A stretch of DNA of 64,000 nt from Myxococcales bacterium (GCA_016708565.1 JADJFN010000001.1:540863-604862), one strand, 5' to 3'. Numbered from the stretch's first letter, positions 4,388 through 42,700 are shown. Program-made: numbers and translations. Notes: generated by a model not told the origin, from the letters alone.

Positions 4388-7300
4388 ATGCGCCGTCGCT
4401 TGCGCCGCTTGTCTACCTTCATCGGGTTCGTCGTCGCGCTGGGCCTGACCACCCACGCCCACGCCCAGCCGGTCAAGCCCCGCATCTCGGTGATGGTGGA
4501 CTCGTCGGGGTCGATGCTGCTGACGCCGGAGATCGTCACCATCGCCGAGACTTGCGTCGCGCAGGGCTGGAACGGCTGCACGAGCAGCGGCAACCCCACC
4601 GCCGCGCAGGAGACCTGCAACGCGTGCATGGCCTGGACGACCCGCGTGTCGCCGACCTGCGCGAGCAGCTTCACGGCGACCTGCCGGTCGACCTACACCA
4701 ACTGCTACCGCTTCTTCTACGGCTCGACCGCGACCTGCGGCCAGTCGCTGAACCTCTCCGAGGGCGTGCCGACCCGCGGCGACGGCACCGCGCTGACGCC
4801 GGGTTGCGACGTCGACGGCGACGGCCAGGCCAACGACAGCCGCATGTACCAGGCCAAGGAGGCGGTCAACAACGTCGTCGCAACGTTCGGCGAGGTCGAG
4901 TTCGCGCTGTGGCGCTACGCCCAGGTCGAGGGCGGGCAGACCTGCGCCTCCGACGCGTCGTGCCCCGACACCCCCGGCGGCTCCAGCGTCCTCACCTGCG
5001 AGAACGTCGCCGGCGCCAACGTCTGCGCGCTCGACGCCGCCAACATCGGCTCGGCGACCGGCCAGTGCAACATGTTCACCTGGAACGGCGCCGACAACAC
5101 GTTCGCGTGCTCGCAGTGCAACGACGGCGGCGGCAGCGCCGAGCGCCTGCTGTGCGAGGCCTACCAGCTCGATCGCATCCGCACCGGCGGGTCGAGCCCG
5201 CTGGCCGGCACCGTCAACTGCGCGCTGCCCAGCACCAACCACCCGTTCATGATGAACCACGGCGGCTGCGATCCCTCGGGCGGCGAGCGCCTGGTCGACT
5301 TCCCGGCCACCGGCTTCGACGACAACTACGCCCAGATCCGGCAGTGGATCGATCACCAGCAGCCCAACGTCTCGACCGACGTCGAGATCAACGCCCAGGG
5401 CGGCACGCCGATCGCCGCGTCGCTGCGCGACATGCGCACCGCGGTCTTCAACTCGGCGCGGCTCGACACCCGCACGCCGTGCCGCAAGCACCAGGTCATC
5501 TTCCTCACCGACGGCGGCGAGAGCTGCGAGACCGTCGCGGCGGCGGTGACCGCGGCCGGCACGTTCCAGAACATGTCGTTCACCAACGCGGCCGGCACCG
5601 TCGTCCCCGACTACGACGTGCCGGTCTACGTCATCGGCTTCGCGGTGTGCCCGCCCGGCCAGCCCAACTGCCAGACCCGCCAGGACCTCAACTCGATCGC
5701 CGCCGCCGGCGGCACCGGCACCGCGATCCTGGTCAACAACCAGCTCGAGCTGCAGCTGGCGCTGGCGCAGATCGTCGCCAACTCGGTGCTGGCCGAGCGC
5801 TGCAACAACCTCGACGACGACTGCGACGGCGCGGTCGACGAGGACTTCCCCGGTCGGGGCGCGGCGTGCTCGGCCGGCGTCGGCGCGTGCTTCGCCAACG
5901 GCACGGTCGTCTGCACCGCCGATCAGACCGGCCTGGCGTGCAACGCCACCGCCGGCGCGCCCAGCCCCGAGGTGTGCAACGGCCTCGACGACAACTGCGA
6001 CGGCCTGATCGACAACGGCATCAGCTGCACCGGCTGCGTGCCGGTGTGCACCGACGCCGCGCACTGCGACGTCTGCAACAACATCGACGAGGACTGCGAC
6101 GCCGTGATCGACGAGGACTTCGTCGCGACCTCGTGCGGCGTCGACACCGGCGCGTGCGCGCCCGGCGCCACGGCGTGCGTCGCCGGCACGCTGTCGTGCA
6201 CCGGCGGCGTCGGCCCGGTCAGCGAGACCTGCAACAACGTCGACGACGACTGCGACGCGATCGTCGACGGCATGACCCAGGCCTGCTACCCGCCGGCCAC
6301 CGCCGGCTGCAACCCGATGACCGGCGTATGCCAGGGCGTGTGCCGGCTCGGCACCCAGACCTGCACCACCGGCAGCTTCGGCGCCTGCACCGGCGCGCGC
6401 ACGCCGGGCCTCGAGATCCCGTGCAACGGGCTCGACGACGACTGCGACGGCCTGGTCGACGAGGGCGGCGGCGTCGAGCAGTGCAACGGCCTCGACGACA
6501 ACTGCAACGGCATGGTCGACGAGGGCGTCGCCACCACCGACCCCGACATCGGCGACGCCTGCGGCACGCCGCCGTTCGTCGGCGCCTGCCGCCAGGGCGC
6601 GATCGCCTGCGTCGCCGGCGCCGAGGTGTGCCAGGGCGAGATCAACCCCACCGGCGAGGTGTGCGACAACGTCGACAACGACTGCGACGGCACCGTCGAC
6701 GACAGCGTGCCCGGGTTCGGCGGGCCGTGCGGCTCGAGCGTCGGCCGCTGCGATCCCGGCACGCTGCAGTGCGTGGCCGGCGCGCCGGTGTGCGTCGGCG
6801 CGGTCGGCCCGTTCGCGGAGGTGTGCAACAGCCAGGACGACAACTGCAACGGCGCGACCGACGAGACCGACCCGATGCTCGGCGACACCTGCGCCACGCT
6901 GCCGGGTGGCGGCACCGTGCCCAGCGAGACCGGCGAGTGCCAGTTCGGCGTGCTGGCGTGCCAGGCCGGCGGCCTGACCTGCGTCGGCGCGATCGGCCCG
7001 GTGGTCGAGCGTTGCAACGCGCTCGACGACGACTGCGACGGCCTGGTCGACGAGACCTTCCCGACGCTGGGCACCGCCTGCGACAACGGCGCGCTCGGCG
7101 TGTGCCGCCAGACCGGCGTCGTGGTGTGCTCGCCCAGCGGCGGCACCACCTGCACCGCGCCGCCCGGCGTGCCCGGCACCGAGACCTGCAACGGCCTCGA
7201 CGACGACTGCGACGGCACCGTCGACGACGGCCCGCTGCCGCTGGTCGGCACCGAGTGCGCGCCGGCCACCGGCGTGTGCGCGCCCGGCCTGTGGGCCTGC

Positions 7301-8434
7301 ACCGCCGGCGTGCTCACCTGCGGCCAGCCCAGCTCGGGCTCGCCCGAGGTCTGCAACGCGTCGGACGACGACTGCGACGCGCAGGTCGACGAGAGCCCGC
7401 CCGGGTCGCCGCTGCCCGGCGAGGAGGAGCCGTGCGTCGAGCCCGGCTTCGAGGCGAACATGGACATCGGCGAGTGCGAGTTCGGCCAGACCGAGTGCGT
7501 CGCCGGCGGCCTCGACTGCATCGGCTACCAGGGCCCCAGCCCGGAGATCTGCGACGGCCTCGACAACGACTGCGACGGCAACGCCGACGACCTGGCGACG
7601 TGCCCGGGCCCGACCGACGCCTGCCACGCCGGCACCTGCGTCCAGCCGTGCGGCGCCGGCGAGTTCCCGTGCGGCGGCGGCTTCATCTGCGAGCACCTCG
7701 ACGACGTGCCGGTGCCGGGCAACTACTGCGTGCCCGACCCGTGCAACGGCGTGACCTGCGCCGCCGATGAGGTGTGCGACCCGGCCACGCGGATGTGCCG
7801 CAACCTGTGCGACGGCGTCACCTGCCAGACCGGCGAGCAGTGCCAGCTCGGCACCTGCGTCGACTGCTTCGACGTGCCGAGCCTGTGCATGCCGGGCGAG
7901 CTGTGCGTGCGCGACGGCCAGGGCGTCGGCCAATGCCAGGACAACCCGTGCGACCCCAACCCGTGCCAGGTCGACGAGACCTGCGTCGAGGGCGTGTGCA
8001 TGGGCGGCTGCGGCGCCGGCTGCCCCGACGGCCAGGCCTGCGTCGGCGGCACCTGCGTCAGCGACCCGTGCGACGGCGTCACCTGCCGCACCGGCGAGGT
8101 GTGCGACCCGGCCACCGGCGACTGCGTGAACCAGATGTGCAGCGGCGTGCAGTGCCGCCCGGGCGAGGTCTGCGTCGAGACCACCGGCGACTGCATCGCC
8201 GATCCGTGCGTCACCACCAACTGCCCGATGGGCCAGACCTGCAGCGTCGATCCCGGCGGCCGCCCGGTGTGCGCCGATCCCGACGCCCCGACCGTGGATC
8301 GCGTGACGGCGGCCGGCGGCGGCTGCGCGGCCGGCGGCGGTGGCGGTGGCGGCGCGGGCGCGGCGATCGGCCTCGCGCTCGTGGCCTGGACGCGACGCCG
8401 GCGCCAGCGCCGCGCGGCGGGAGGTGCGGCGTGA
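4388..8434 (+). CDS. Giant secreted protein: signal peptide, von Willebrand factor A domain, about 12 MopE-type Cys-rich putative metal-binding repeats (CNxLDDDCDGxVDE), a Cys-rich C-terminal region, and a MYXO-CTERM sorting signal
   Basis: VWA MIDAS-like motif ISVMVDSSGSM. Repeated C-x3-DDDCDG-x2-DE units. The C-terminal GGGCAAGGGGGG...ALVAWTRRRR matches the MYXO-CTERM pattern. Confidence 0.85.
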   Translation: MRRRLRRLSTFIGFVVALGLTTHAHAQPVKPRISVMVDSSGSMLLTPEIVTIAETCVAQGWNGCTSSGNPTAAQETCNACMAWTTRVSPTCASSFTATCRSTYTNCYRFFYGSTATCGQSLNLSEGVPTRGDGTALTPGCDVDGDGQANDSRMYQAKEAVNNVVATFGEVEFALWRYAQVEGGQTCASDASCPDTPGGSSVLTCENVAGANVCALDAANIGSATGQCNMFTWNGADNTFACSQCNDGGGSAERLLCEAYQLDRIRTGGSSPLAGTVNCALPSTNHPFMMNHGGCDPSGGERLVDFPATGFDDNYAQIRQWIDHQQPNVSTDVEINAQGGTPIAASLRDMRTAVFNSARLDTRTPCRKHQVIFLTDGGESCETVAAAVTAAGTFQNMSFTNAAGTVVPDYDVPVYVIGFAVCPPGQPNCQTRQDLNSIAAAGGTGTAILVNNQLELQLALAQIVANSVLAERCNNLDDDCDGAVDEDFPGRGAACSAGVGACFANGTVVCTADQTGLACNATAGAPSPEVCNGLDDNCDGLIDNGISCTGCVPVCTDAAHCDVCNNIDEDCDAVIDEDFVATSCGVDTGACAPGATACVAGTLSCTGGVGPVSETCNNVDDDCDAIVDGMTQACYPPATAGCNPMTGVCQGVCRLGTQTCTTGSFGACTGARTPGLEIPCNGLDDDCDGLVDEGGGVEQCNGLDDNCNGMVDEGVATTDPDIGDACGTPPFVGACRQGAIACVAGAEVCQGEINPTGEVCDNVDNDCDGTVDDSVPGFGGPCGSSVGRCDPGTLQCVAGAPVCVGAVGPFAEVCNSQDDNCNGATDETDPMLGDTCATLPGGGTVPSETGECQFGVLACQAGGLTCVGAIGPVVERCNALDDDCDGLVDETFPTLGTACDNGALGVCRQTGVVVCSPSGGTTCTAPPGVPGTETCNGLDDDCDGTVDDGPLPLVGTECAPATGVCAPGLWACTAGVLTCGQPSSGSPEVCNASDDDCDAQVDESPPGSPLPGEEEPCVEPGFEANMDIGECEFGQTECVAGGLDCIGYQGPSPEICDGLDNDCDGNADDLATCPGPTDACHAGTCVQPCGAGEFPCGGGFICEHLDDVPVPGNYCVPDPCNGVTCAADEVCDPATRMCRNLCDGVTCQTGEQCQLGTCVDCFDVPSLCMPGELCVRDGQGVGQCQDNPCDPNPCQVDETCVEGVCMGGCGAGCPDGQACVGGTCVSDPCDGVTCRTGEVCDPATGDCVNQMCSGVQCRPGEVCVETTGDCIADPCVTTNCPMGQTCSVDPGGRPVCADPDAPTVDRVTAAGGGCAAGGGGGGGAGAAIGLALVAWTRRRRQRRAAGGAA

Positions 8435-11382
8435 GCCGGCTCGCGGTGGTGGCGCTGGCCGCGTTCGCGCTCGCCGGCTGCGACGTCAACCCCTACAACC
8501 TCGGCGGCGGCGGCAACCGCGACGCCGGCCTCGACGCCAGCGGCGACGGCGGCGGCATCGACGGCGCCGTCGGCGACGACGCCAGCATCGACGCGCCGAT
8601 CGACGGCGCCAGCTGCGTGCCGCGCACCGAGGTGTGCAACAACGCCGACGACGACTGCGACACCGTCGTCGACAACGGCTTCAACCTGCAGGCCGATCCC
8701 AACAACTGCGGGGTGTGCGGCCGGCAGTGCACGTACCCGCACGCGTTCGGCACCTGCGACATGGGCACCTGCACGCCCGGCGCGTGCCAGCCGGGCTGGA
8801 ACGACACCGACGCGACGATGGCCGGCTGCGAGTACTTCTGCATCCCGACCAACGGCGGCGTCGAGGTCTGCGACGACCGCGACAACGACTGCGATACCCG
8901 GATGGACGAGGACTTCAACCTCGCCACCGACGAGAACAACTGCGGCCGGTGCGGCAACGTCTGCAACCTGCTCCACGCCAGCGCCGACTGCCAGGCCGGC
9001 GTGTGCGAGGTGGCGATGTGCGACCCGGGGTTCGTCGACGTCGACGCCGCGGTCCCGGGCTGCGAGTACCAGTGCACGCCCAGCGGCGGCGGCGTCGAGA
9101 CCTGCGACGGCGTCGACAACGACTGCGACGGCGCGGTCGACGACGGCAACCCCGGCGGCGGCGCCAGCTGCGGCACCGACACCGGCGTGTGCATGGCCGG
9201 CACGACCCAGTGCCAGAACGGCGTGCTGTTCTGCGTCGGCGCGACCAGCGGCGGCGCCGAGTCGTGCAACAACCTCGACGACGACTGCGACGGCGCGATC
9301 GACGACGGCTACGACAAGCAGAACGATCCGCTGCACTGCGGCGGCTGCTCGCCGTGCAGCCTGCCGCACGCGGTCGAGGGCTGCGCGCTCGGTGCCTGCA
9401 CCGTCGCGTCGTGCGACTTCGGCTTCGTCAACCTCAACGGCAGCCCCGCCGACGGCTGCGAGTATGGCTGCATCAACACCGGCACCGAGCGCTGCGACAC
9501 GACCGACAACAACTGCAACGGCACGGTCGACGAGGGCTTCAACACCGCCACCGATGCCGCCAACTGCGGCAGCTGTGGCCACGCCTGCGCGTTCGCCAAC
9601 GCCGGCGCGCTGTGCGCCGCGTCGACGTGCGTGATGGGCGCGTGCAACCCCAACTTCTACGACGTCAACGGCAACCCCGCCGACGGCTGCGAGTACGGCT
9701 GCGTGCCCACCAACGGCGGCGTCGAGGCCTGCGACGGCGTCGACAACGATTGCGACGGCCTGATCGACGACGGCAACCCCGGCGGCGGCGTCACGTGCGG
9801 CGTCAACACCGGCGAGTGCACCGCGGGCACCACCACCTGCGCGTTCGGCGCGATCGACTGCGTCGGCGACGTCGGCGCGGCCGCCGAGACCTGCAACAAC
9901 CTCGACGACGACTGCAACGGCACCGTCGACAACGGCTTCGACAAGCTCAACGACCCGCGCTACTGCGCCAACTGCGCCGGCTGCAACCTGCCGCACGCGG
10001 TGGCCGGCTGCAGCGCCGGCGGCTGCACGGTCGCCGGCTGCCTGGGCGGGTTCGTCAACCTCGACGGCCTCGCCGCCAACGGCTGCGAGTACGGCTGCAC
10101 GTTCTCGGGCCAGGAGGTGTGCGACGGCGTCGACAACGACTGCGATGGCCTGGTCGACAACGCCGACCCGACGCTGATCCGCCCGGCCAACTTCTGCAAG
10201 ACCGCCGGCGAGTGCGCCGGCACCACCCCGACCTGCACCGGCGCCACCGGCTGGGACTGCGTCTACACGGACCCCGACGTCGAGACCGTCGGCGGCGATC
10301 CGGCGCTCGAGGAGACGCGCTGCGACGGCAAGGACAACGACTGCGACGGCGGCGCCGACGAGGTCTACCCGCTCAAGGGCAGCGCCTGCGGCGAGGACGG
10401 CACGTTCGGTACCACCCGCCGGCTGGGCGCGTGCCGGGGCACCGGCGCGCTGGTGTGCAACGCCGCCCAGACCGGCCTGCGCTGCAACGTCACGACCGCT
10501 GGCGCCGCGGCGGCCAACGAGACCTGCAACAACCGGGACGACGACTGCGACGGCCACACCGACGAGCCGTACGACTCGGGTGGCTTCAACGGCGTGCGCG
10601 ACGTGACCGTCGGCCCGCTGACGGTCAACGGCGCGAGCGTGGTGATGTACCGCTACGAGGCCAGCCGGCCCGACGCCACCGCCGCCGCGCCCGGCATCGT
10701 CGGCAGCCGCGCGTGCTCGGTCGCCAACCGCGTGCCGTGGGCGACCGCCAACTTCGCCACCGTGCAGGCGGCGTGCGCCGCGGCCGGCATGCGCCTGTGC
10801 CGGGTGACGCGCAACGGCAGCGGCGTCGTGACCAGCGACGAGTGGGGCCGGTTCTGCGAGGGCGCGGCCAACCGCCTCTACCCCTACGGCAACAGCTACG
10901 TCGCCGCGACCTGCAACGGCAGCGACTACGACCCGGTGGCCGGCGGGGTCAACGAGGATCAGGCGGTCGCCACCGGCGCGCTCGCGGGCTGTCAGTCGCA
11001 GGACCTGGCCAACGACATGTCCGGCAACCTGAAGGAGTGGGTCAACGATCCGCGCGTGGTGTCCGGCCAGACCGTCCACACGCTGCGCGGCGGGTCGTTC
11101 GACAACTACGCGAGCGGCATGACCTGCGACTTCGACCTGACCGTCGTGCCGACCGCCTACTCCTTCGCCAACGCCGGCTTCCGCTGCTGCGCGCTGTCGT
11201 GCGCGGCGGGCCAGGTCGAGTGCAGCGGCACCTGCGTCAACACCGCCAGCAGCAACACCAACTGCGGCGCGTGCGGCGTGACCTGCGGCGGCGGCCAGGC
11301 GTGCTCGAACGGCTACTGCTGCCCGACCGGCACCCGGGCCTGCGGCGACGTCTGCGTCGCCAACGCCACGCCGTGCCCGTGA
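8431..11382 (+). CDS. Giant lipoprotein: lipobox LAGC, alternating MopE-type repeats and a 55-aa 8-Cys module (ending GCEYxC), and a C-terminal FGE-sulfatase (formylglycine-generating-enzyme family) domain
   Basis: GTG start overlaps the stop of the upstream gene. About 10 repeats of CxxxDNDCDG. Five repeats of NCGxCGxxC...GCEYxC. The C-terminal region RACSVANRVPWATANFATVQAACAAAGMRLC...WGRFCEGAANRLYPYGN...LKEWVND...LRGGSF resembles the FGE/SUMF1 family. Confidence 0.8.
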   Translation: MSRLAVVALAAFALAGCDVNPYNLGGGGNRDAGLDASGDGGGIDGAVGDDASIDAPIDGASCVPRTEVCNNADDDCDTVVDNGFNLQADPNNCGVCGRQCTYPHAFGTCDMGTCTPGACQPGWNDTDATMAGCEYFCIPTNGGVEVCDDRDNDCDTRMDEDFNLATDENNCGRCGNVCNLLHASADCQAGVCEVAMCDPGFVDVDAAVPGCEYQCTPSGGGVETCDGVDNDCDGAVDDGNPGGGASCGTDTGVCMAGTTQCQNGVLFCVGATSGGAESCNNLDDDCDGAIDDGYDKQNDPLHCGGCSPCSLPHAVEGCALGACTVASCDFGFVNLNGSPADGCEYGCINTGTERCDTTDNNCNGTVDEGFNTATDAANCGSCGHACAFANAGALCAASTCVMGACNPNFYDVNGNPADGCEYGCVPTNGGVEACDGVDNDCDGLIDDGNPGGGVTCGVNTGECTAGTTTCAFGAIDCVGDVGAAAETCNNLDDDCNGTVDNGFDKLNDPRYCANCAGCNLPHAVAGCSAGGCTVAGCLGGFVNLDGLAANGCEYGCTFSGQEVCDGVDNDCDGLVDNADPTLIRPANFCKTAGECAGTTPTCTGATGWDCVYTDPDVETVGGDPALEETRCDGKDNDCDGGADEVYPLKGSACGEDGTFGTTRRLGACRGTGALVCNAAQTGLRCNVTTAGAAAANETCNNRDDDCDGHTDEPYDSGGFNGVRDVTVGPLTVNGASVVMYRYEASRPDATAAAPGIVGSRACSVANRVPWATANFATVQAACAAAGMRLCRVTRNGSGVVTSDEWGRFCEGAANRLYPYGNSYVAATCNGSDYDPVAGGVNEDQAVATGALAGCQSQDLANDMSGNLKEWVNDPRVVSGQTVHTLRGGSFDNYASGMTCDFDLTVVPTAYSFANAGFRCCALSCAAGQVECSGTCVNTASSNTNCGACGVTCGGGQACSNGYCCPTGTRACGDVCVANATPCP

Positions 11383-11755: not shown

Positions 11756-11935
11756 GCGCGAGGGCGCAGCGCTGTCGACAAACGCAACGCCGGCGCGACG
11801 CGCCGTCGCTGATCGCAACCGCCGCGGCCCCATCGGGGGCCGCAGGTGTTTTCGGCGGGCCACCCTTCGCCGCGCGGGGTCGACAGCGGCGGCCCCAGGC
11901 GTTAGGGTGCGCGCGACTTCACCCCGGAGACTTCC

Positions 11936-14358: not shown

Positions 14359-17211
<2,853 letters not shown>

Positions 17212-38644: not shown

Positions 38645-39745
38645 GTGCCTCGGTTCCGCGCGCTGGTGCTGCACCCCGATCGCGCCGCGATCGGCGAGCT
38701 CACCGAGCTCCTGGCGCACCTCGACCTCGCGGTCGAGGCCACCGGCTCGGCGACCGACGCCGCGCGCCGGCTGCGCCAGCACGCGCCGCACGCGATCCTG
38801 GCCGGGCACGATCCGCCGGGGCTCGACGGCATCGGCTTCCTCGACGCCAGCGTCGCCGCCGCGCCCGACGCGCTGCGGGTGCTGCTGGTCGAGGCGCCCG
38901 GCGTCGGCGCCGAGCTCGAGCACCGCGCGCCGACCGCGCCGGCGATCGTCCGCTTCATCGCCCGCGCCGGCCAGCGCTCGCACCTGACCGCGCTGATCGG
39001 CGAGGCGATCAAGCTGCTCGGCCTGGTCGAGGAGCAGCGCTCGCTGGTGGCCCGGCTGGCCGGCGAGCACGAGCGGCTCAAGCGCCGCGGCACGCTGCTC
39101 GACGTCGTCGTCAAGGAGCGCACCAAGGAGCTCGAGGACAGCTACCTGCGGCTCAAGGAGGCGCACCGGCAGGCGCTGTTCGGGCTGGCCGAGGCGATCG
39201 AGGCCAAGGACCCCTACACCAAGGGCCACTGCGGCCGGGTCGCGGCGTACGCCTTGGTGTTGGCCAAGGAGGCCGGCTACCCGGCCGAGGGCCTCGAGAC
39301 GCTGGAGTTCGGCGCGTTCCTCCACGACATCGGCAAGATCGGCATCCGCGACGCGGTGCTGCTCAAGCCGGGGCCGCTCGACGACGTCGAGTGGTCGCAC
39401 ATGCGCGAGCACCCGGTGAAGGGCTACGAGATCGCGCGCCGGATCGAGATCCTGCACCCGATCATGGCCGCGGTGCGCAACCACCACGAGCGCTGGGACG
39501 GCACCGGCTACCCCGATCGGATGAAGGGCGCCGACATCCCGCTGGCCGCGCGCATCGTCGCGATCGCCGACGCCTACGACGCGATGTCGACCGATCGCCC
39601 GTACAAGGCCGGCCTGCCGCTGGCCGAGTGCGAGCGGCTGCTGCGCAAGTGCGCCGGGACGATGTACGACCCCGAGCTGATCGAGCTGTTCGTGACCCGC
39701 CGGATCGGCGCGATCTACGAAGACGAGCTGGCCGCCGGCGAGTGA
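38645..39745 (+). CDS. Response-regulator receiver fused to an HD-GYP phosphohydrolase domain (c-di-GMP phosphodiesterase family)
   Basis: HD motifs HCGRVAAYA, FLHDIGKIGI and HHERWDGTGYP (the GYP signature). GTG start near 38645. Confidence 0.8.
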   Translation: MPRFRALVLHPDRAAIGELTELLAHLDLAVEATGSATDAARRLRQHAPHAILAGHDPPGLDGIGFLDASVAAAPDALRVLLVEAPGVGAELEHRAPTAPAIVRFIARAGQRSHLTALIGEAIKLLGLVEEQRSLVARLAGEHERLKRRGTLLDVVVKERTKELEDSYLRLKEAHRQALFGLAEAIEAKDPYTKGHCGRVAAYALVLAKEAGYPAEGLETLEFGAFLHDIGKIGIRDAVLLKPGPLDDVEWSHMREHPVKGYEIARRIEILHPIMAAVRNHHERWDGTGYPDRMKGADIPLAARIVAIADAYDAMSTDRPYKAGLPLAECERLLRKCAGTMYDPELIELFVTRRIGAIYEDELAAGE

Positions 39746-39758
39746 CCGGCGCGCGCGG

Positions 39759-42700
39759 TCACGTCGGCGGCTTGGGATCGTCGAGCGCGGTGAGCGCGAT
39801 CGCCAGCGCCTTCTTGGCCCGCAGCACGGTGGCCTCGTCGGTCTTGATCCGCTGGTAGGCCTTGAGCACCTGCTCCTGGTAGGTGGCGTTTTCGCGCTCG
39901 ACCTCGTCGAGCTGCGCCGCCTGCTCGGCCAGGCGTTGATCGCGCGCGGCGATCGCGGCCTGGTGCTCGGTGAGCGCGACGTCGCGCGCGGCGATCGCGG
40001 CCCGGGCCGCGGCCAGCTCGTCGTCGGTGCGCTTGAGCTGGGCCCGGGCCGAGGTCAGGCCGCGCTCGAGCTCGCCGCGTTCGCGGTCCAGCTCGTCCTT
40101 GGCGGCGCCGGCGGCGGCCAGCTCGCCGCGGGTGGCGGCCAGCTCGCCGCGCACGCGCTCGAGCTCGCCGCGCAGCGTGGCCAGCTCGCCGGCGAGCTGA
40201 TCGCGGGTGGCCGCGGCCGACGCCAGCTCGGCGGCGACCGCGTCGCGGCCGGCCTGGACCTCGGCCAGCGCCGCGGCGTGGCGGCGCGCGTCGTCGTCGC
40301 GCTCGCCGGCCAGCCGGGCCTCGAGCGCCTGCTGCTCGCCGACCAGCCGGGCCTCGAGCGCCCGCAGCGCGGCGGCCTGGGCGGCGACGGCCTCGGCGCG
40401 CGCCGCGGCCAGCTGCTCGTCGTGGCCCTCGCGCTGCGCGGTCAGCGCCTGGGCGTGCTCGTCGCGCTGCGCGGTCAGCGCCTGGGCGTGCTCGCCGCGC
40501 AGCCCGGCCAGCGCCTGCTCGTGCTCGCCGCGCAGCCGCGCGACGTGATCGCCGCGCACCGACTCGGCCTCGGCGCGGACCTCCTCGAGGGCGGCCTGGT
40601 GGTCGGCGGCCAGCTTGGCCACCGCCTGCTCGTGCAGCGCGCGGACGTCGTCGAGCTCGGCGCGCGCCTGCTCGGCCCGAGCGGCCACCGCGCGGCGGCC
40701 CTCGGCCTCGGCGGCGGCCACCGCCTCGGAGCGCTCGCGCGCGACCTCGGCCAGCGCCGCGTGGTGGCGCTCGCCGGCGGCCTGCAGCGCGTCCTCGTGC
40801 TGGGCCAGCGCCGCCGACAGCTCGGCGGCGCGCTCGCCGGCCAGCTGGGCCAGCGCGGCGTCGTGGCTGGTGCGCAGCTCGGCCAGCGCGGTCTCGGCGC
40901 GCTGGCGCTCGGCCGCGACCGCGGCGTCGAGCGCGGCGGCGTGCTCCGCGGCCCGGGCGGTCTGCCGCGCGTCGTGCTCGGCGGCCGCGACCGCGATCGC
41001 GCCGGCGTGCTGGGCGGCGGCCTCGGCCTGCACCGCGAGCAACGCGGCCTCGCGCTCCTGGGCCGCGGCGTGCTGGGCGGCGGCCAGCGCCTGCGCGGCG
41101 TCGGTCTGGGCGGCGGCAAGCGCCTGGGCGGCCTCGGCGCGGGCGGCGGCCAGCGCCTGCTCGGCCTCGGCCTTGGCGCGATCGCGCGCGGCGGCGTGCT
41201 CGCGCTCGAGCTTGGTCAGCGCCGCCTGCTGCGTCGACGTGAGGTTGGCGACGGTGGCCTCGGCGTCGCGGCGCGCCGCGGTGGCCTCGGCCAGCTGGGT
41301 GCGCGCGGCCTCGGCGTCGGCCGCGAGCTTGCCCAGCCGCGCCTCGAGCGCGGTGATGCGCTGGCGCGCCTCGAGCGTGGCCTGCTCGGCGGCCTCGACC
41401 CGCTCGCTGTCGCCGAGCAGCCGCGACTCCATCTCGAGGTTCTTGGCGTCGACCGCGGCCTTGGCGTGCTGCAGCTGCCGGGTCTTCTCGCGCGCGTCGA
41501 GCAGCTCGCGCTCCTTGTGCGAGAGCTCGTCGCGCAGCCCCAGCAGCTCCTTGTCCTTGGCCGCGAGGCTCTCGCGCAGGCTCAAGAACTCGCGCTCGCG
41601 GCTGACCGGCTTGGCCACCGGCTCGGCGGACTTGGCCTTCTCGAGCTCGGCGCGCAGCCGCTGGTTGTCGCGCTCGAGCAGGTGCAGCTTCTGCAACGAC
41701 TTGCGATCGTGGAGGCCTGACTGCTCGGCGTCGGCGCGCGCGGCGATCTCGTCGAGGCCGAGGTCGACCGGGCCGGCGGGCTCGGCCGGCGGCGACGACG
41801 TCGTCGCGCCGCCGCGGCGCCGCGGCAGCTCGGCGGCGGCGTGGATCGACGGCAGCGGCGCGGCCACCGGCTCGGGCGGCGGCGCGATCGGCTCGGGGGG
41901 CGGCGCGGGCGGCGCGATCGGCTCGGGGGGCGGCGCGATCGGCTCGGGCGGGCGCGCGGCGATCGGCTCGGGCGCGGCGACCGGCGCAGGGGCCGGCTCG
42001 GGCGTGGCGATCGGCTCGGGCTCGATCGCGACCGGCGGCGGCAAGGTCGGCGGCACCGCGCGCTCGGCGGCCGGCGGCGGCGGCGGCGGTGGCGGCATCG
42101 TCCCGCGTTGCCGCGGCGGCGGCGGCGTGGTGGGGCGCCCCGCGCGGCGGCGGCGGCGGCGGCGGCGCGGCGGCCGGGGGCGCCGGCTCCTCGAGCGGCG
42201 GCAGCTCGATCGCGGCGTCGCTGGCCGGCAACGGCTCGAGGTCGGTGAGGCTGAGCGAGGCGCTGACCGACTCGAAGGTCTCGAGCGACTCGAGCGGCTC
42301 GAGCGGCTCGATCGCCTCGGGGATCACGCCGTCGGCCAGCGGCAGCGGCGCGGGCGCGGCGATCGGCTCGGGGATCGCGGCCTCGACCTCGACCTCGACC
42401 GACGGCTCGACGATCGCCGCCTCCACCACCGGCGCGATCGGCGGCGCCGGCGTCGGCGCCGGCGTGCGCGCGAGCGCGGCCTGGGCGGCCTCGATCGGCA
42501 TCGCGTCGGTCAGCGCCGCGAACGCCGCGTCGGTCTCGGCGTCGATCAGGTCGTCGAAGCCGGTCGACGAGTGCACGGTGTGGGCGCCCTCGTTGAAGTC
42601 GTCGCCGTCGCCGAGATCGAGCGCGGCGCTGTCGACCTCGTCGACCAGCACGTCGTCGTCGATCGACACCTCGTCGACCTCGACCGGGATCGCCAGCTCG

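Follow-up and report, generated by a model that had tools for sequence, protein, structure and literature searches.

In a 64,000-nucleotide stretch of DNA from a Myxococcales bacterium (GCA_016708565.1, JADJFN010000001.1:540863-604862), hereafter the window, two adjacent genes encode large, cysteine-rich proteins that we call P1 and P2. The P1 coding sequence (nt 4388-8434, + strand) starts with ATG and specifies 1348 residues, 129 of them Cys, arranged as a signal peptide, a VWA head, a Cys-rich stalk and a MYXO-CTERM-type tag. The P2 coding sequence (nt 8431-11382, +) starts with GTG at 8431 and specifies 983 residues with 99 Cys, arranged as a lipoprotein signal, a Cys-rich stalk, a head with the fold of the formylglycine-generating enzyme (FGE) and a Stig1-like tail. 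Because the window is ~73% GC, long open reading frames (ORFs) occur in many frames. Third-codon-position GC of 0.98 (P1) and 0.92 (P2) marks the true coding frames among them, and the coordinates given for the pair in a preliminary description of this DNA (4388-11382) proved exact (ORF1, 4388-8434; ORF2, 8431-11382).

The P2 start codon GTG (8431-8433) and the P1 stop codon TGA (8432-8434) share the four nucleotides GTGA, an overlap that the preliminary description had also noted. Together with a GGGAGG Shine-Dalgarno sequence at 8419-8424, these codons form a translational-coupling junction (8419-8434, +). A GTGA or ATGA overlap, with GGAGG or GAGG located 6-13 nt upstream inside P1, was present in 15/15 loci examined, and the conservation of a 4-nt overlap with an embedded GGAGG shows the genes to be a coupled pair. 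In the window (8405-8431) and in 14 other loci, the end of P1 that follows its RRRR motif is conserved as ...GG(A/R)(A/S). The conserved Gly-Gly at the extreme C-terminus probably reflects the fact that its codons carry the GGAGG Shine-Dalgarno sequence of P2, and the P1 tail thus appears to be a protein end constrained by the ribosome-binding site of the downstream gene.

Anchors and recurrence of the pair

The VWA, FGE and MYXO-CTERM calls each fall below or near threshold with single-sequence hidden Markov models (HMMs), and independent tests were therefore needed for all three. P1 begins with a Sec signal peptide, read from the sequence (aa 1-27, nt 4388-4468, +; ...THAHA/QP). This is the least conserved region among P1 orthologues (24-32% identity), as expected for signal peptides, and residues 1-25 have a pLDDT below 50 in the predicted model. 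At the other end of the protein lies a MYXO-CTERM-type sorting tag (aa 1310-1340, nt 8315-8407, +) with GGGC (Cys1313), a hydrophobic helix and RRRR. The tail runs in the order AAGGGC, Gly-rich/hydrophobic segment and RRRR, and the pattern DRVTAAGGGC...RRRR is present in all complete orthologues. MYXO-CTERM is a tripartite tag, and its carriers in Myxococcus xanthus, for example TraA, are lipidated on the invariant Cys, cut by the myxosortase MrtX and displayed via type II secretion (T2SS) (PMC11980579). P1 has both the tripartite tag and the N-terminal signal peptide. As an isolated 60-aa sequence, its tail scored 18.3 bits with TIGR03382 (cut-off 15.85) and 18.5 bits with TIGR03901 (cut-off 20); in a 344-aa context the scores were 14.2 and 14.4, respectively, and the full protein gave no match at E<0.01.

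P2 carries a lipoprotein signal and tether (nt 8431-8616, +) made up of a lipobox, LAGC (aa 14-17, Cys17), the conserved sequence C(D/N/T)VNPY and, at aa 18-62, a G/D-rich tether. The signal ends in ...AFALAG-C17 (it reads MSRLAVVALAAFALAG-C17) and agrees with the lipobox pattern [LVI][ASTG][GAS]C, in keeping with the earlier call of P2 as a lipoprotein. Both the lipobox Cys and (D/N/T)VNPY are found in the window P2 and in 12/12 Kofleriaceae-type orthologues; a lipobox is present in P0066 and P0031 as well. Mature P2 has no Lys at position +2 of its N-terminus, the inner-membrane retention signal of M. xanthus lipoproteins (PMC3222651). Given the Sec signal and MYXO-CTERM-type tail of P1 and the lipobox of P2, each protein is predicted to be anchored at one end and to carry its head at the other. 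The anchors lie at opposite ends, the C-terminus of P1 and the N-terminus of P2, with the globular head at the far stalk end in both.

A genome scan with an alignment of the P1 head identified 21 loci, mostly in metagenome-assembled genomes (MAGs) of Kofleriaceae. A database protein from one Kofleriaceae MAG is 92% identical to the first 282 residues of P1, which places the window in this family. At least 17 loci, belonging to five lineages and differing in genomic context, contain the pair. In at least 12 Kofleriaceae-type MAGs the synteny around it is conserved (DksA-like, alpha/beta-hydrolase, three small genes, P1, P2, gap, pgk, GGDEF-kinase), with P1 followed by P2 wherever there is enough sequence. 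The P1 orthologues of this type (12 loci) have 1342-1403 residues and 12 repeats, and the P2 orthologues (12/12) have 982-999 residues, exactly 99 Cys and, by one regular expression, 8-10 repeats. In locus L020 the pair, with a P1 that is 32% identical, stands beside a histidine kinase and a P450 fusion; it is also found in the Polyangiaceae locus L023, in L025 and, in reversed gene order, in L026. The preliminary description had proposed co-occurrence as a check, and the pair is indeed co-conserved across the Kofleriaceae-type loci, L020, L023, L025 and L026. The neighbours differ in L020, L023 and L025, and only the pair itself is conserved as a unit. A functional link to the neighbours in the window (a PilZ-like gene, an exported 182-aa protein and gap-pgk-tpiA) was rejected, as that synteny is confined to Kofleriaceae.

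In one locus, L004 (3510-8828, from a MAG labelled Myxococcaceae), homologues of P1 and P2 form a single 1772-aa ORF with no stop between them. A MYXO-CTERM tag (KGCGC...RRRK) is followed directly by a lipobox signal (ALCALALTAC), and long GGGS-type linkers flank both. A Rosetta-stone domain fusion was considered and rejected, as the internal MYXO-CTERM and lipobox are kept; the two genes are merely adjacent in L004, and the stop between them is missing either through loss or through an error in sequencing.

The two heads

The P1 head (aa 28-468, nt 4469-5791, +) consists of a VWA core of ~180 aa and ~260 aa of large Cys-rich inserts, and contains a MIDAS (metal-ion-dependent adhesion site), the sequence TRGDG (aa 129-133), a DVDGDG loop and 23 invariant Cys. 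The core has the Rossmann-like alpha/beta fold of VWA domains, and the MIDAS motif D-x-S-x-S...T...D is complete (D38, S40, S42, T340 and D375). With fold and full MIDAS present and the tail conserved in complete orthologues, P1 is a VWA protein with a MYXO-CTERM-type tail, as had been proposed. All 23 head Cys and TRGDG are invariant across 20 close P1 orthologues; the distant L020 head has THGDG in place of TRGDG and is missing several of the 23 Cys. The N-terminal 470 residues of P1 retrieved 18 homologues from a word index, all metagenomic, and no Pfam domain covers the head region in any of these 18.

The MIDAS separates paired from unpaired forms of the head. All paired forms have its residues (D-S-S..T..D) intact, whereas all the stand-alone forms that were checked have them altered: the Thr is replaced by R, K, S or G, and some of these forms have lost the Asp or the third Ser too. 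The altered stand-alones include L018 (an acidobacterial MAG), L019 (a Lysobacterales MAG), P0134, P0121, P0122 and P0126. No P2-like gene was found directly downstream of the stand-alones on the same strand, a result that is less certain for L029 and the P0122 contig, several neighbours having no recorded Pfam domain. L018 (a Candidatus Polarisedimenticolaceae MAG), L019 (57% GC) and L028-L030 encode short VWA heads of 518-681 aa with 0-1 of the MopE units described below. Such short stand-alone forms occur outside Myxococcota, and they suggest either horizontal spread of the head or loss of stalk and partner.

Additional features of the head were observed. In the region of the window at 4772-4840 (P1 aa 129-151), TRGDG is invariant in 20/21 loci (THGDG in L020); PGCDVDGDGxANDS comes after it and gives the first VWA insert one more loop of the DxDxDG type. 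An RGD beside a MIDAS domain is suggestive, yet it may be only a Ca2+ loop. The VWA partners in the Polyangiaceae-type versions of L023 (1594-5136) and L025 (743-4252) carry an extra N-terminal Gly-rich domain of 420-520 aa, which may be a beta-helix, before the VWA domain; the VWA domain is thus not always the distal tip. A polymorphic head like that of TraA was rejected for P1, as regional identities are uniform (60-73%) among 13 orthologues, with no hypervariable head.

The P2 head (aa 713-925, nt 10567-11205, +) is a truncated FGE-fold (C-type-lectin-like) domain with the motif YxYEASRPDA and the ending GFRCC. It is followed by a C-terminal Stig1-like/MXAN_6577-like Cys-rich tail (aa 926-983, nt 11206-11379, +; 11 Cys), which in isolation scored 24.1 bits with Pfam Stig1, equal to the cut-off, and 39.7 bits with NF041328 (cut-off 100). 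The C-terminal 272 residues of P2 have 367 homologues, mostly PF03781 proteins with or without PF11617, and homologues of the head carry the PGAP name 'SUMF1/EgtB/PvdO family nonheme iron enzyme'. The single-sequence Pfam FGE score of P2 is 23.0 against a cut-off of 23.3; the L020 orthologue passes with 33.7. Against the PDB, a 48-member family profile matched pFGE/SUMF2 (5e-19) and human FGE (4e-17), as well as CalU17, PorK and EgtB; the nearest match by sequence is thus pFGE, a paralogue that is catalytically inactive. An AlphaFold2 model of the head (pLDDT 86, pTM 0.81) retrieved FGE (probability 1.0), pFGE, CalU17, ToxD, PorK, TvpA and Mtd with Foldseek. Profile and Foldseek results agree, and thus P2 does end in an FGE-family domain on a lipoprotein, as the preliminary description had it.

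The further step taken in that description, that the exported domain has the chemistry of a copper-dependent FGE oxidase, did not survive the alignment. The match spans profile positions 113/114-254 of 255 and so takes in the C-terminal two-thirds of the fold. In the PDB alignments the first FGE residue is ~144 of a 323-aa chain, and ~45 aa replace the N-terminal sub-domain, which P2 lacks. Cys residues of the P2 family align with both structural disulfides of human FGE (C218-C365 and C235-C346), the ligands of the second Ca2+ site (D/N...E in GNxxEW) are kept, and the P2 head has four extra conserved Cys relative to FGE. Human FGE C336 aligns to a non-Cys residue, and C341 lies in a three-residue insert that is missing from the P2 family. 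Among the 48 aligned relatives, the catalytic loop contains no Cys in 45 and one Cys in 3, and the pair is found in 0/48; the Cu(I)-binding Cys pair is likewise missing in 14/14 P2 sequences (the loci and the window). Since the pair is missing, the P2 head, judged by its sequence, cannot be a Cu-dependent FGE. No sulfatase gene was seen among the neighbours of the pair in the window and in L020. Pfam scans of P1 and P2 found no DinB domain, the source of the iron-binding His triad of EgtB and OvoA, and P2 therefore does not qualify as a sulfoxide synthase; EgtB and OvsA match the P2 family only over the FGE-fold part.

The P2 loop at the position of the FGE active site varies between conserved flanks (DNYASG, DNHRDG, DNQQNG and DNFEHG). 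The equivalent loop is a binding surface in C-type lectin (CLec)/FGE-fold binders such as TvpA and Mtd, and variability among the P2 orthologues is more typical of a binding surface. The head could alternatively have a new, non-FGE catalysis that needs no Cys pair, acting for example on a surface glycan or peptide, with P1 as its substrate-capturing partner. The near-invariant YxYEASRPDA and other invariant residues do suggest a conserved functional site, and the natural-product FGE-fold proteins CalU17 and ToxD are the best single-sequence and Foldseek matches. We nevertheless regard new catalysis as very improbable, as no metal-binding or catalytic residue set could be identified, the DinB domain that EgtB and OvoA need is missing, and the variable loop is more like a binding surface than an active site. 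The head was also considered as a target of a diversity-generating retroelement and rejected: the fold matches Mtd and TvpA, but no template repeat or reverse transcriptase ORF was found in the window. The best off-target match of nt 10900-11250 within the window is 37 nt.

The stalks and the copper label

In each protein, an acidic stretch of 700-850 aa composed of DxDxDG/Cys units (PF11617) and small Cys-knot modules lies between anchor and head. The P1 stalk (aa 469-1075, nt 5792-7612, +) contains 12 PF11617 MopE-type DxDxDG/Cys motifs, most of them followed by a 4-Cys hairpin unit. Next to the membrane anchor is a Cys-knot region (aa 1076-1295, nt 7613-8272, +) of repeated PCxGVxCxxGxxCxxxTGxC units, which is 55-78% identical in orthologues and matched no Pfam or NCBIfam family, with only FOLN at E 0.063. 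The P2 stalk (aa 63-712, nt 8617-10566, +) contains 10 PF11617 motifs interleaved with five 8-Cys modules and hairpin units. The five modules (+ strand) lie at nt 8695-8841 (aa 89-137), 8929-9075 (aa 167-215), 9325-9471 (aa 299-347), 9553-9702 (aa 375-424) and 9952-10098 (aa 508-556). Each has 49-50 residues, eight Cys and the pattern NCGxCG...GCEYxC; the count and pattern given in the preliminary description therefore stand, and its length of 55 aa includes flanking residues. In isolation, the modules gave only sub-threshold Stig1 and CPL1-like matches in Pfam. Neither stalk sequence had a match in the PDB at E<=1.

Twelve units in P1 and ten in P2 fit the regular expression C-x3-D-x-[DN]-C-[DN]-[GAT]-x2-D, in agreement with the 12 and about 10 copies first reported, and the PF11617 core D-x-[DN]-x-[DN]-[GAT] occurs 13 and 10 times, respectively. 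PF11617 itself scored well over its cut-off of 27 bits (124.2 bits in eight stretches of P1 and 109.3 bits in six stretches of P2). The second repeat model suggested at the outset, the Myxococcus disulfide repeat TIGR02232, did not apply: there was no NCBIfam match to it at E<=0.01 on full P1 or P2, nor at E<=10 on the C-terminal 344 residues of P1. A profile that included one MopE+hairpin unit matched 1787 representative proteins at E<1e-10; many have a length of 2000-4800 aa and 20-60 matched stretches (maximum 63). As the MopE+hairpin columns that close the alignment dominate this profile, the number sizes the repeat family and not the VWA-head family.

The composition of the stalks bears on what the repeats could bind. 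The 607 residues of the P1 stalk carry a net charge of -96 and include 67 Cys and 72 Asp, but one His, one Trp and no Lys. The P2 stalk resembles it in composition, and both are nearly free of His, Trp and Met. The DxDxDG loop is a known Ca2+-binding motif. In the study of CglD, DxDxDG repeats were read as Ca2+-binding (10.1101/2023.10.19.562135). In MopE, the high-affinity Cu(I) site is formed by His132, His203 and kynurenine-130 (PMC3423442), and the PF11617 model, which lacks specificity, takes in no more of MopE than a small putative metal site (PMC6189053). The units in P1 and P2 have no conserved His or Trp and thus lack the residues of MopE-like copper binding. By sequence, the PF11617 motif in P1 and P2 fits a DxDxDG Ca2+ loop and not the MopE copper site. 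When one lipid-modified Cys is subtracted from each protein, 128 Cys are left in P1 and 98 in P2, both even numbers. The straightforward reading is that the stalks would be fully disulfide-bonded, Ca2+-loaded rods.

The preliminary description had combined Cu-binding-like repeats with an exported FGE-like domain into a cell-surface redox or maturation function, in which the MopE-type repeats would bind copper and feed an extracytoplasmic, Cu-dependent FGE-type oxidase acting on surface substrates. A family named after a copper protein does match strongly, the P2 head is a genuine FGE-fold homologue, and aerobic FGEs are Cu(I) enzymes (PDB titles 6muj, 5ssz and 6s07). Nevertheless, the copper proposal is largely refuted and we find it hardly credible. 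Of the refuting conditions named in that description, the loss of the catalytic residues applies and the lack of co-conservation does not, so that its architecture holds and its chemistry fails. The Cu(I) Cys pair is lost from P2, its orthologues and all 48 relatives, the N-terminal third of the FGE fold is gone and the nearest match is the inactive pFGE. Furthermore, the His/His/kynurenine site of MopE lies outside the motif (PMC3423442), the stalks contain almost no His, Trp or Met, and no sulfatase gene is adjacent.

The extreme acidity of the stalks and their 22 DxDxDG loops could also point to a structural or ion-buffering Ca2+-binding coat or matrix scaffold that has no specific ligand and forms no defined heterodimer. 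MopE+hairpin units abound in giant proteins, which reach 4800 aa and 63 stretches among the 1787 representatives, and conservation is uniform across regions (60-73%) with no hypervariable head, as such a role would allow. A coat or scaffold is improbable in our judgement, as a full MIDAS is selectively kept in paired and lost in unpaired forms, and two specialised heads with tight 1:1 coupling point to specific binding.

The stalk lengths of P1 and P2 co-vary in five lineages (~840/727, 603/568, 512/516, 402/240 and 286/269 aa). This co-variation bears on the possibility that P2 is an outer-membrane lipoprotein which faces the periplasm and is dedicated to the assembly, export or anchoring of P1, comparable to PorK/GldK of type IX secretion or to TraB. 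Strict co-occurrence and translational coupling would fit such a partner, the periplasmic leaflet is the default site of outer-membrane lipoproteins, and the matches of P2 in sequence and structure include PorK, a scaffold lipoprotein with the FGE fold. A 700-aa acidic P2 stalk with 77 Cys that tracks the length of P1 is hard to explain in this way, however, and may exceed the width of the periplasm. The PorK match is also distant (E 3e-10; Foldseek rank 46), and there is no partner-like (PorN-type) gene near P2. We therefore consider a periplasmic role for P2 quite unlikely.

Proposed function, wider context and known systems

Based on the features described above, we propose, with about even confidence, that P1 and P2 form a translationally coupled, two-subunit, lipid-anchored adhesin or receptor of the cell envelope, most likely at the cell surface. 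Coupled translation of the bicistronic operon would set a defined ratio of the two envelope proteins. P1 would be displayed on the surface by the MYXO-CTERM/T2SS route, and P2 would be a surface-exposed outer-membrane lipoprotein like CglB and CglD. The rigid, Ca2+-loaded and fully disulfide-bonded stalks, matched in length, would hold the two heads side by side off the membrane. The VWA MIDAS would bind an acidic ligand, which could belong to the substratum, to prey, to the matrix or to P2 itself, and the role of the P2 FGE-fold head would be lectin-like binding, not oxidation. Both heads would then work together in adhesion or recognition.

In a more specific version, the pair would be an integrin-like two-chain receptor with separately anchored subunits on stalks of co-evolving length, in which the MIDAS engages a conserved acidic residue of the P2 head (for example in YEASRPDA), or in which the two heads form a composite ligand site. 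This version seems unlikely to us. If true, a VWA domain would have the FGE fold as its obligate partner, which would be a new role for this fold.

Several points weigh against the two-subunit adhesin or receptor. We infer the surface exposure of P2, which may face the periplasm instead, and we also infer the joint action of the two heads, for which physical contact is a proposal only. No ligand can be named for the pair, and the P2 head may, as far as its sequence tells, have some enzymatic activity other than that of FGE. The MYXO-CTERM HMM scores are borderline. The stalk-length correlation amounts to about five independent points, and the MIDAS correlation to ~5-6 lineages. In L027 there is an FGE-like lipoprotein that has no VWA partner. 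Finally, every homologue of the pair is metagenomic and unnamed or annotated as 'hypothetical'.

Gliding, predation, kin recognition and multicellular development of myxobacteria depend on surface adhesins and receptors, few of which have been studied (CglB, CglD and TraA), all in M. xanthus. The pair represents an uncharacterised two-gene module that is so far confined to metagenome-derived genomes, mainly of Kofleriaceae and Polyangiaceae, and we found no paper describing the pair or the repeat beyond two passing mentions. Additionally, our analysis corrects two database labels. The 'Cu-binding_MopE' repeats look like Ca2+/disulfide stalk units, and the lipoproteins of this clade labelled 'SUMF1/EgtB/PvdO nonheme iron enzyme' have no catalytic metal site. 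Both labels cover thousands of giant Myxococcota proteins, the annotation of which would change if they are read as stalks and binding modules. In Myxococcota, giant Cys-rich proteins with MopE repeats are nothing unusual, and without the copper idea no surprising chemistry is left.

Other features of the window lie outside the pair. A terminator-like GC hairpin followed by a T-run (11824-11843, +) is located between P2 and gap; it is one consensus match against 2.4 expected in shuffled sequences, and thus weak evidence of a terminator. A promoter scan found nothing, and neither did a search of the window with Rfam. A 950-aa protein with GGDEF and Ser/Thr protein kinase domains is encoded at 14359-17211 (+), between pgk and tpiA, a position that is kept in the Kofleriaceae loci. 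The 872-aa ORF at 30693-33311 (+) matches Pfam MVP_shoulder (74.6 bits) and Vault_3 (43.5 bits) and is, on these matches, a predicted bacterial homologue of the eukaryotic major vault protein. At 39696-42323, GC content exceeds 80% and long ORFs overlap on both strands (675 aa on +, 855 aa on -); the minus-strand ORF had no Pfam match when scanned.

The database proteins most directly comparable to P1 and P2 carry misleading automatic names. The 'SUMF1/EgtB/PvdO family nonheme iron enzyme' lipoproteins named by PGAP are the actual homologues of P2, with a lipobox, 3-10 MopE units and a short FGE-fold domain, and the 'MopE-related proteins' of Myxococcota MAGs are the actual homologues of P1, with VWA, MopE units and MYXO-CTERM. 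Neither has an iron or copper residue set that would justify its name, and in the records seen the VWA head has no Pfam domain or name. Among these homologues, the window pair is an expanded form with 12+10 repeats. MopE/CorA of methanotrophs has the short Asp/Cys-rich motif C.DGVDNNCDGQVD in common with P1 and P2 (PMC3278476) and shares nothing else with them. The relationship to FGE/SUMF1 and pFGE/SUMF2 (PF03781) is one of homology to the C-terminal two-thirds of the fold, with the structural-disulfide Cys and the second Ca2+ site kept. In contrast to FGE, the P2 head lacks C336, C341 and the N-terminal sub-domain, contains four additional conserved Cys and is carried by the stalk of a lipoprotein, and it is nearer to the inactive pFGE and to binding or scaffold members of the fold (PorK, TvpA and Mtd) than to the enzyme.

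By analogy of function, the closest characterised systems would be CglB/CglD and TraA/TraB of M. xanthus. CglB and CglD, gliding adhesins that are integrin alpha-I-like and beta-integrin-like, respectively, resemble the pair in being extracytoplasmic, lipid-anchored and Cys-rich, with a VWA domain and MIDAS. CglD has a Cys-rich stalk with 12 DxDxDG Ca2+ motifs, and it is in functional association with the Glt gliding apparatus and with CglB (PMC9946355; 10.1101/2023.10.19.562135). The likeness is architectural, based on the description of these proteins and not on a sequence relationship. Unlike CglB and CglD, P1 is anchored by a C-terminal MYXO-CTERM-type tag and not a lipobox, the head of its partner has the FGE fold instead of a second VWA domain, and the two genes are translationally coupled. 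Furthermore, no Glt genes adjoin the pair, and the stalk repeats are PF11617 and not TSP3/COMP-like. TraA is similar to P1 in having a distal binding domain, a stalk of Cys-rich repeats, a MYXO-CTERM tag cut by MrtX, T2SS display and a co-encoded partner, TraB (PMC11980579; PMC3325183). The head of TraA, however, is PA14-like and polymorphic, whereas the P1 head is a VWA domain that is no more variable than the stalk. TraB is OmpA-type, whereas P2 is an FGE-fold lipoprotein, and TIGR02232-type repeats do not match P1 or P2. Relative to CglB/CglD and TraA/TraB, the new elements of the pair are a VWA domain combined with a C-terminal tag, an FGE-fold partner head, coupled genes and PF11617 stalks.

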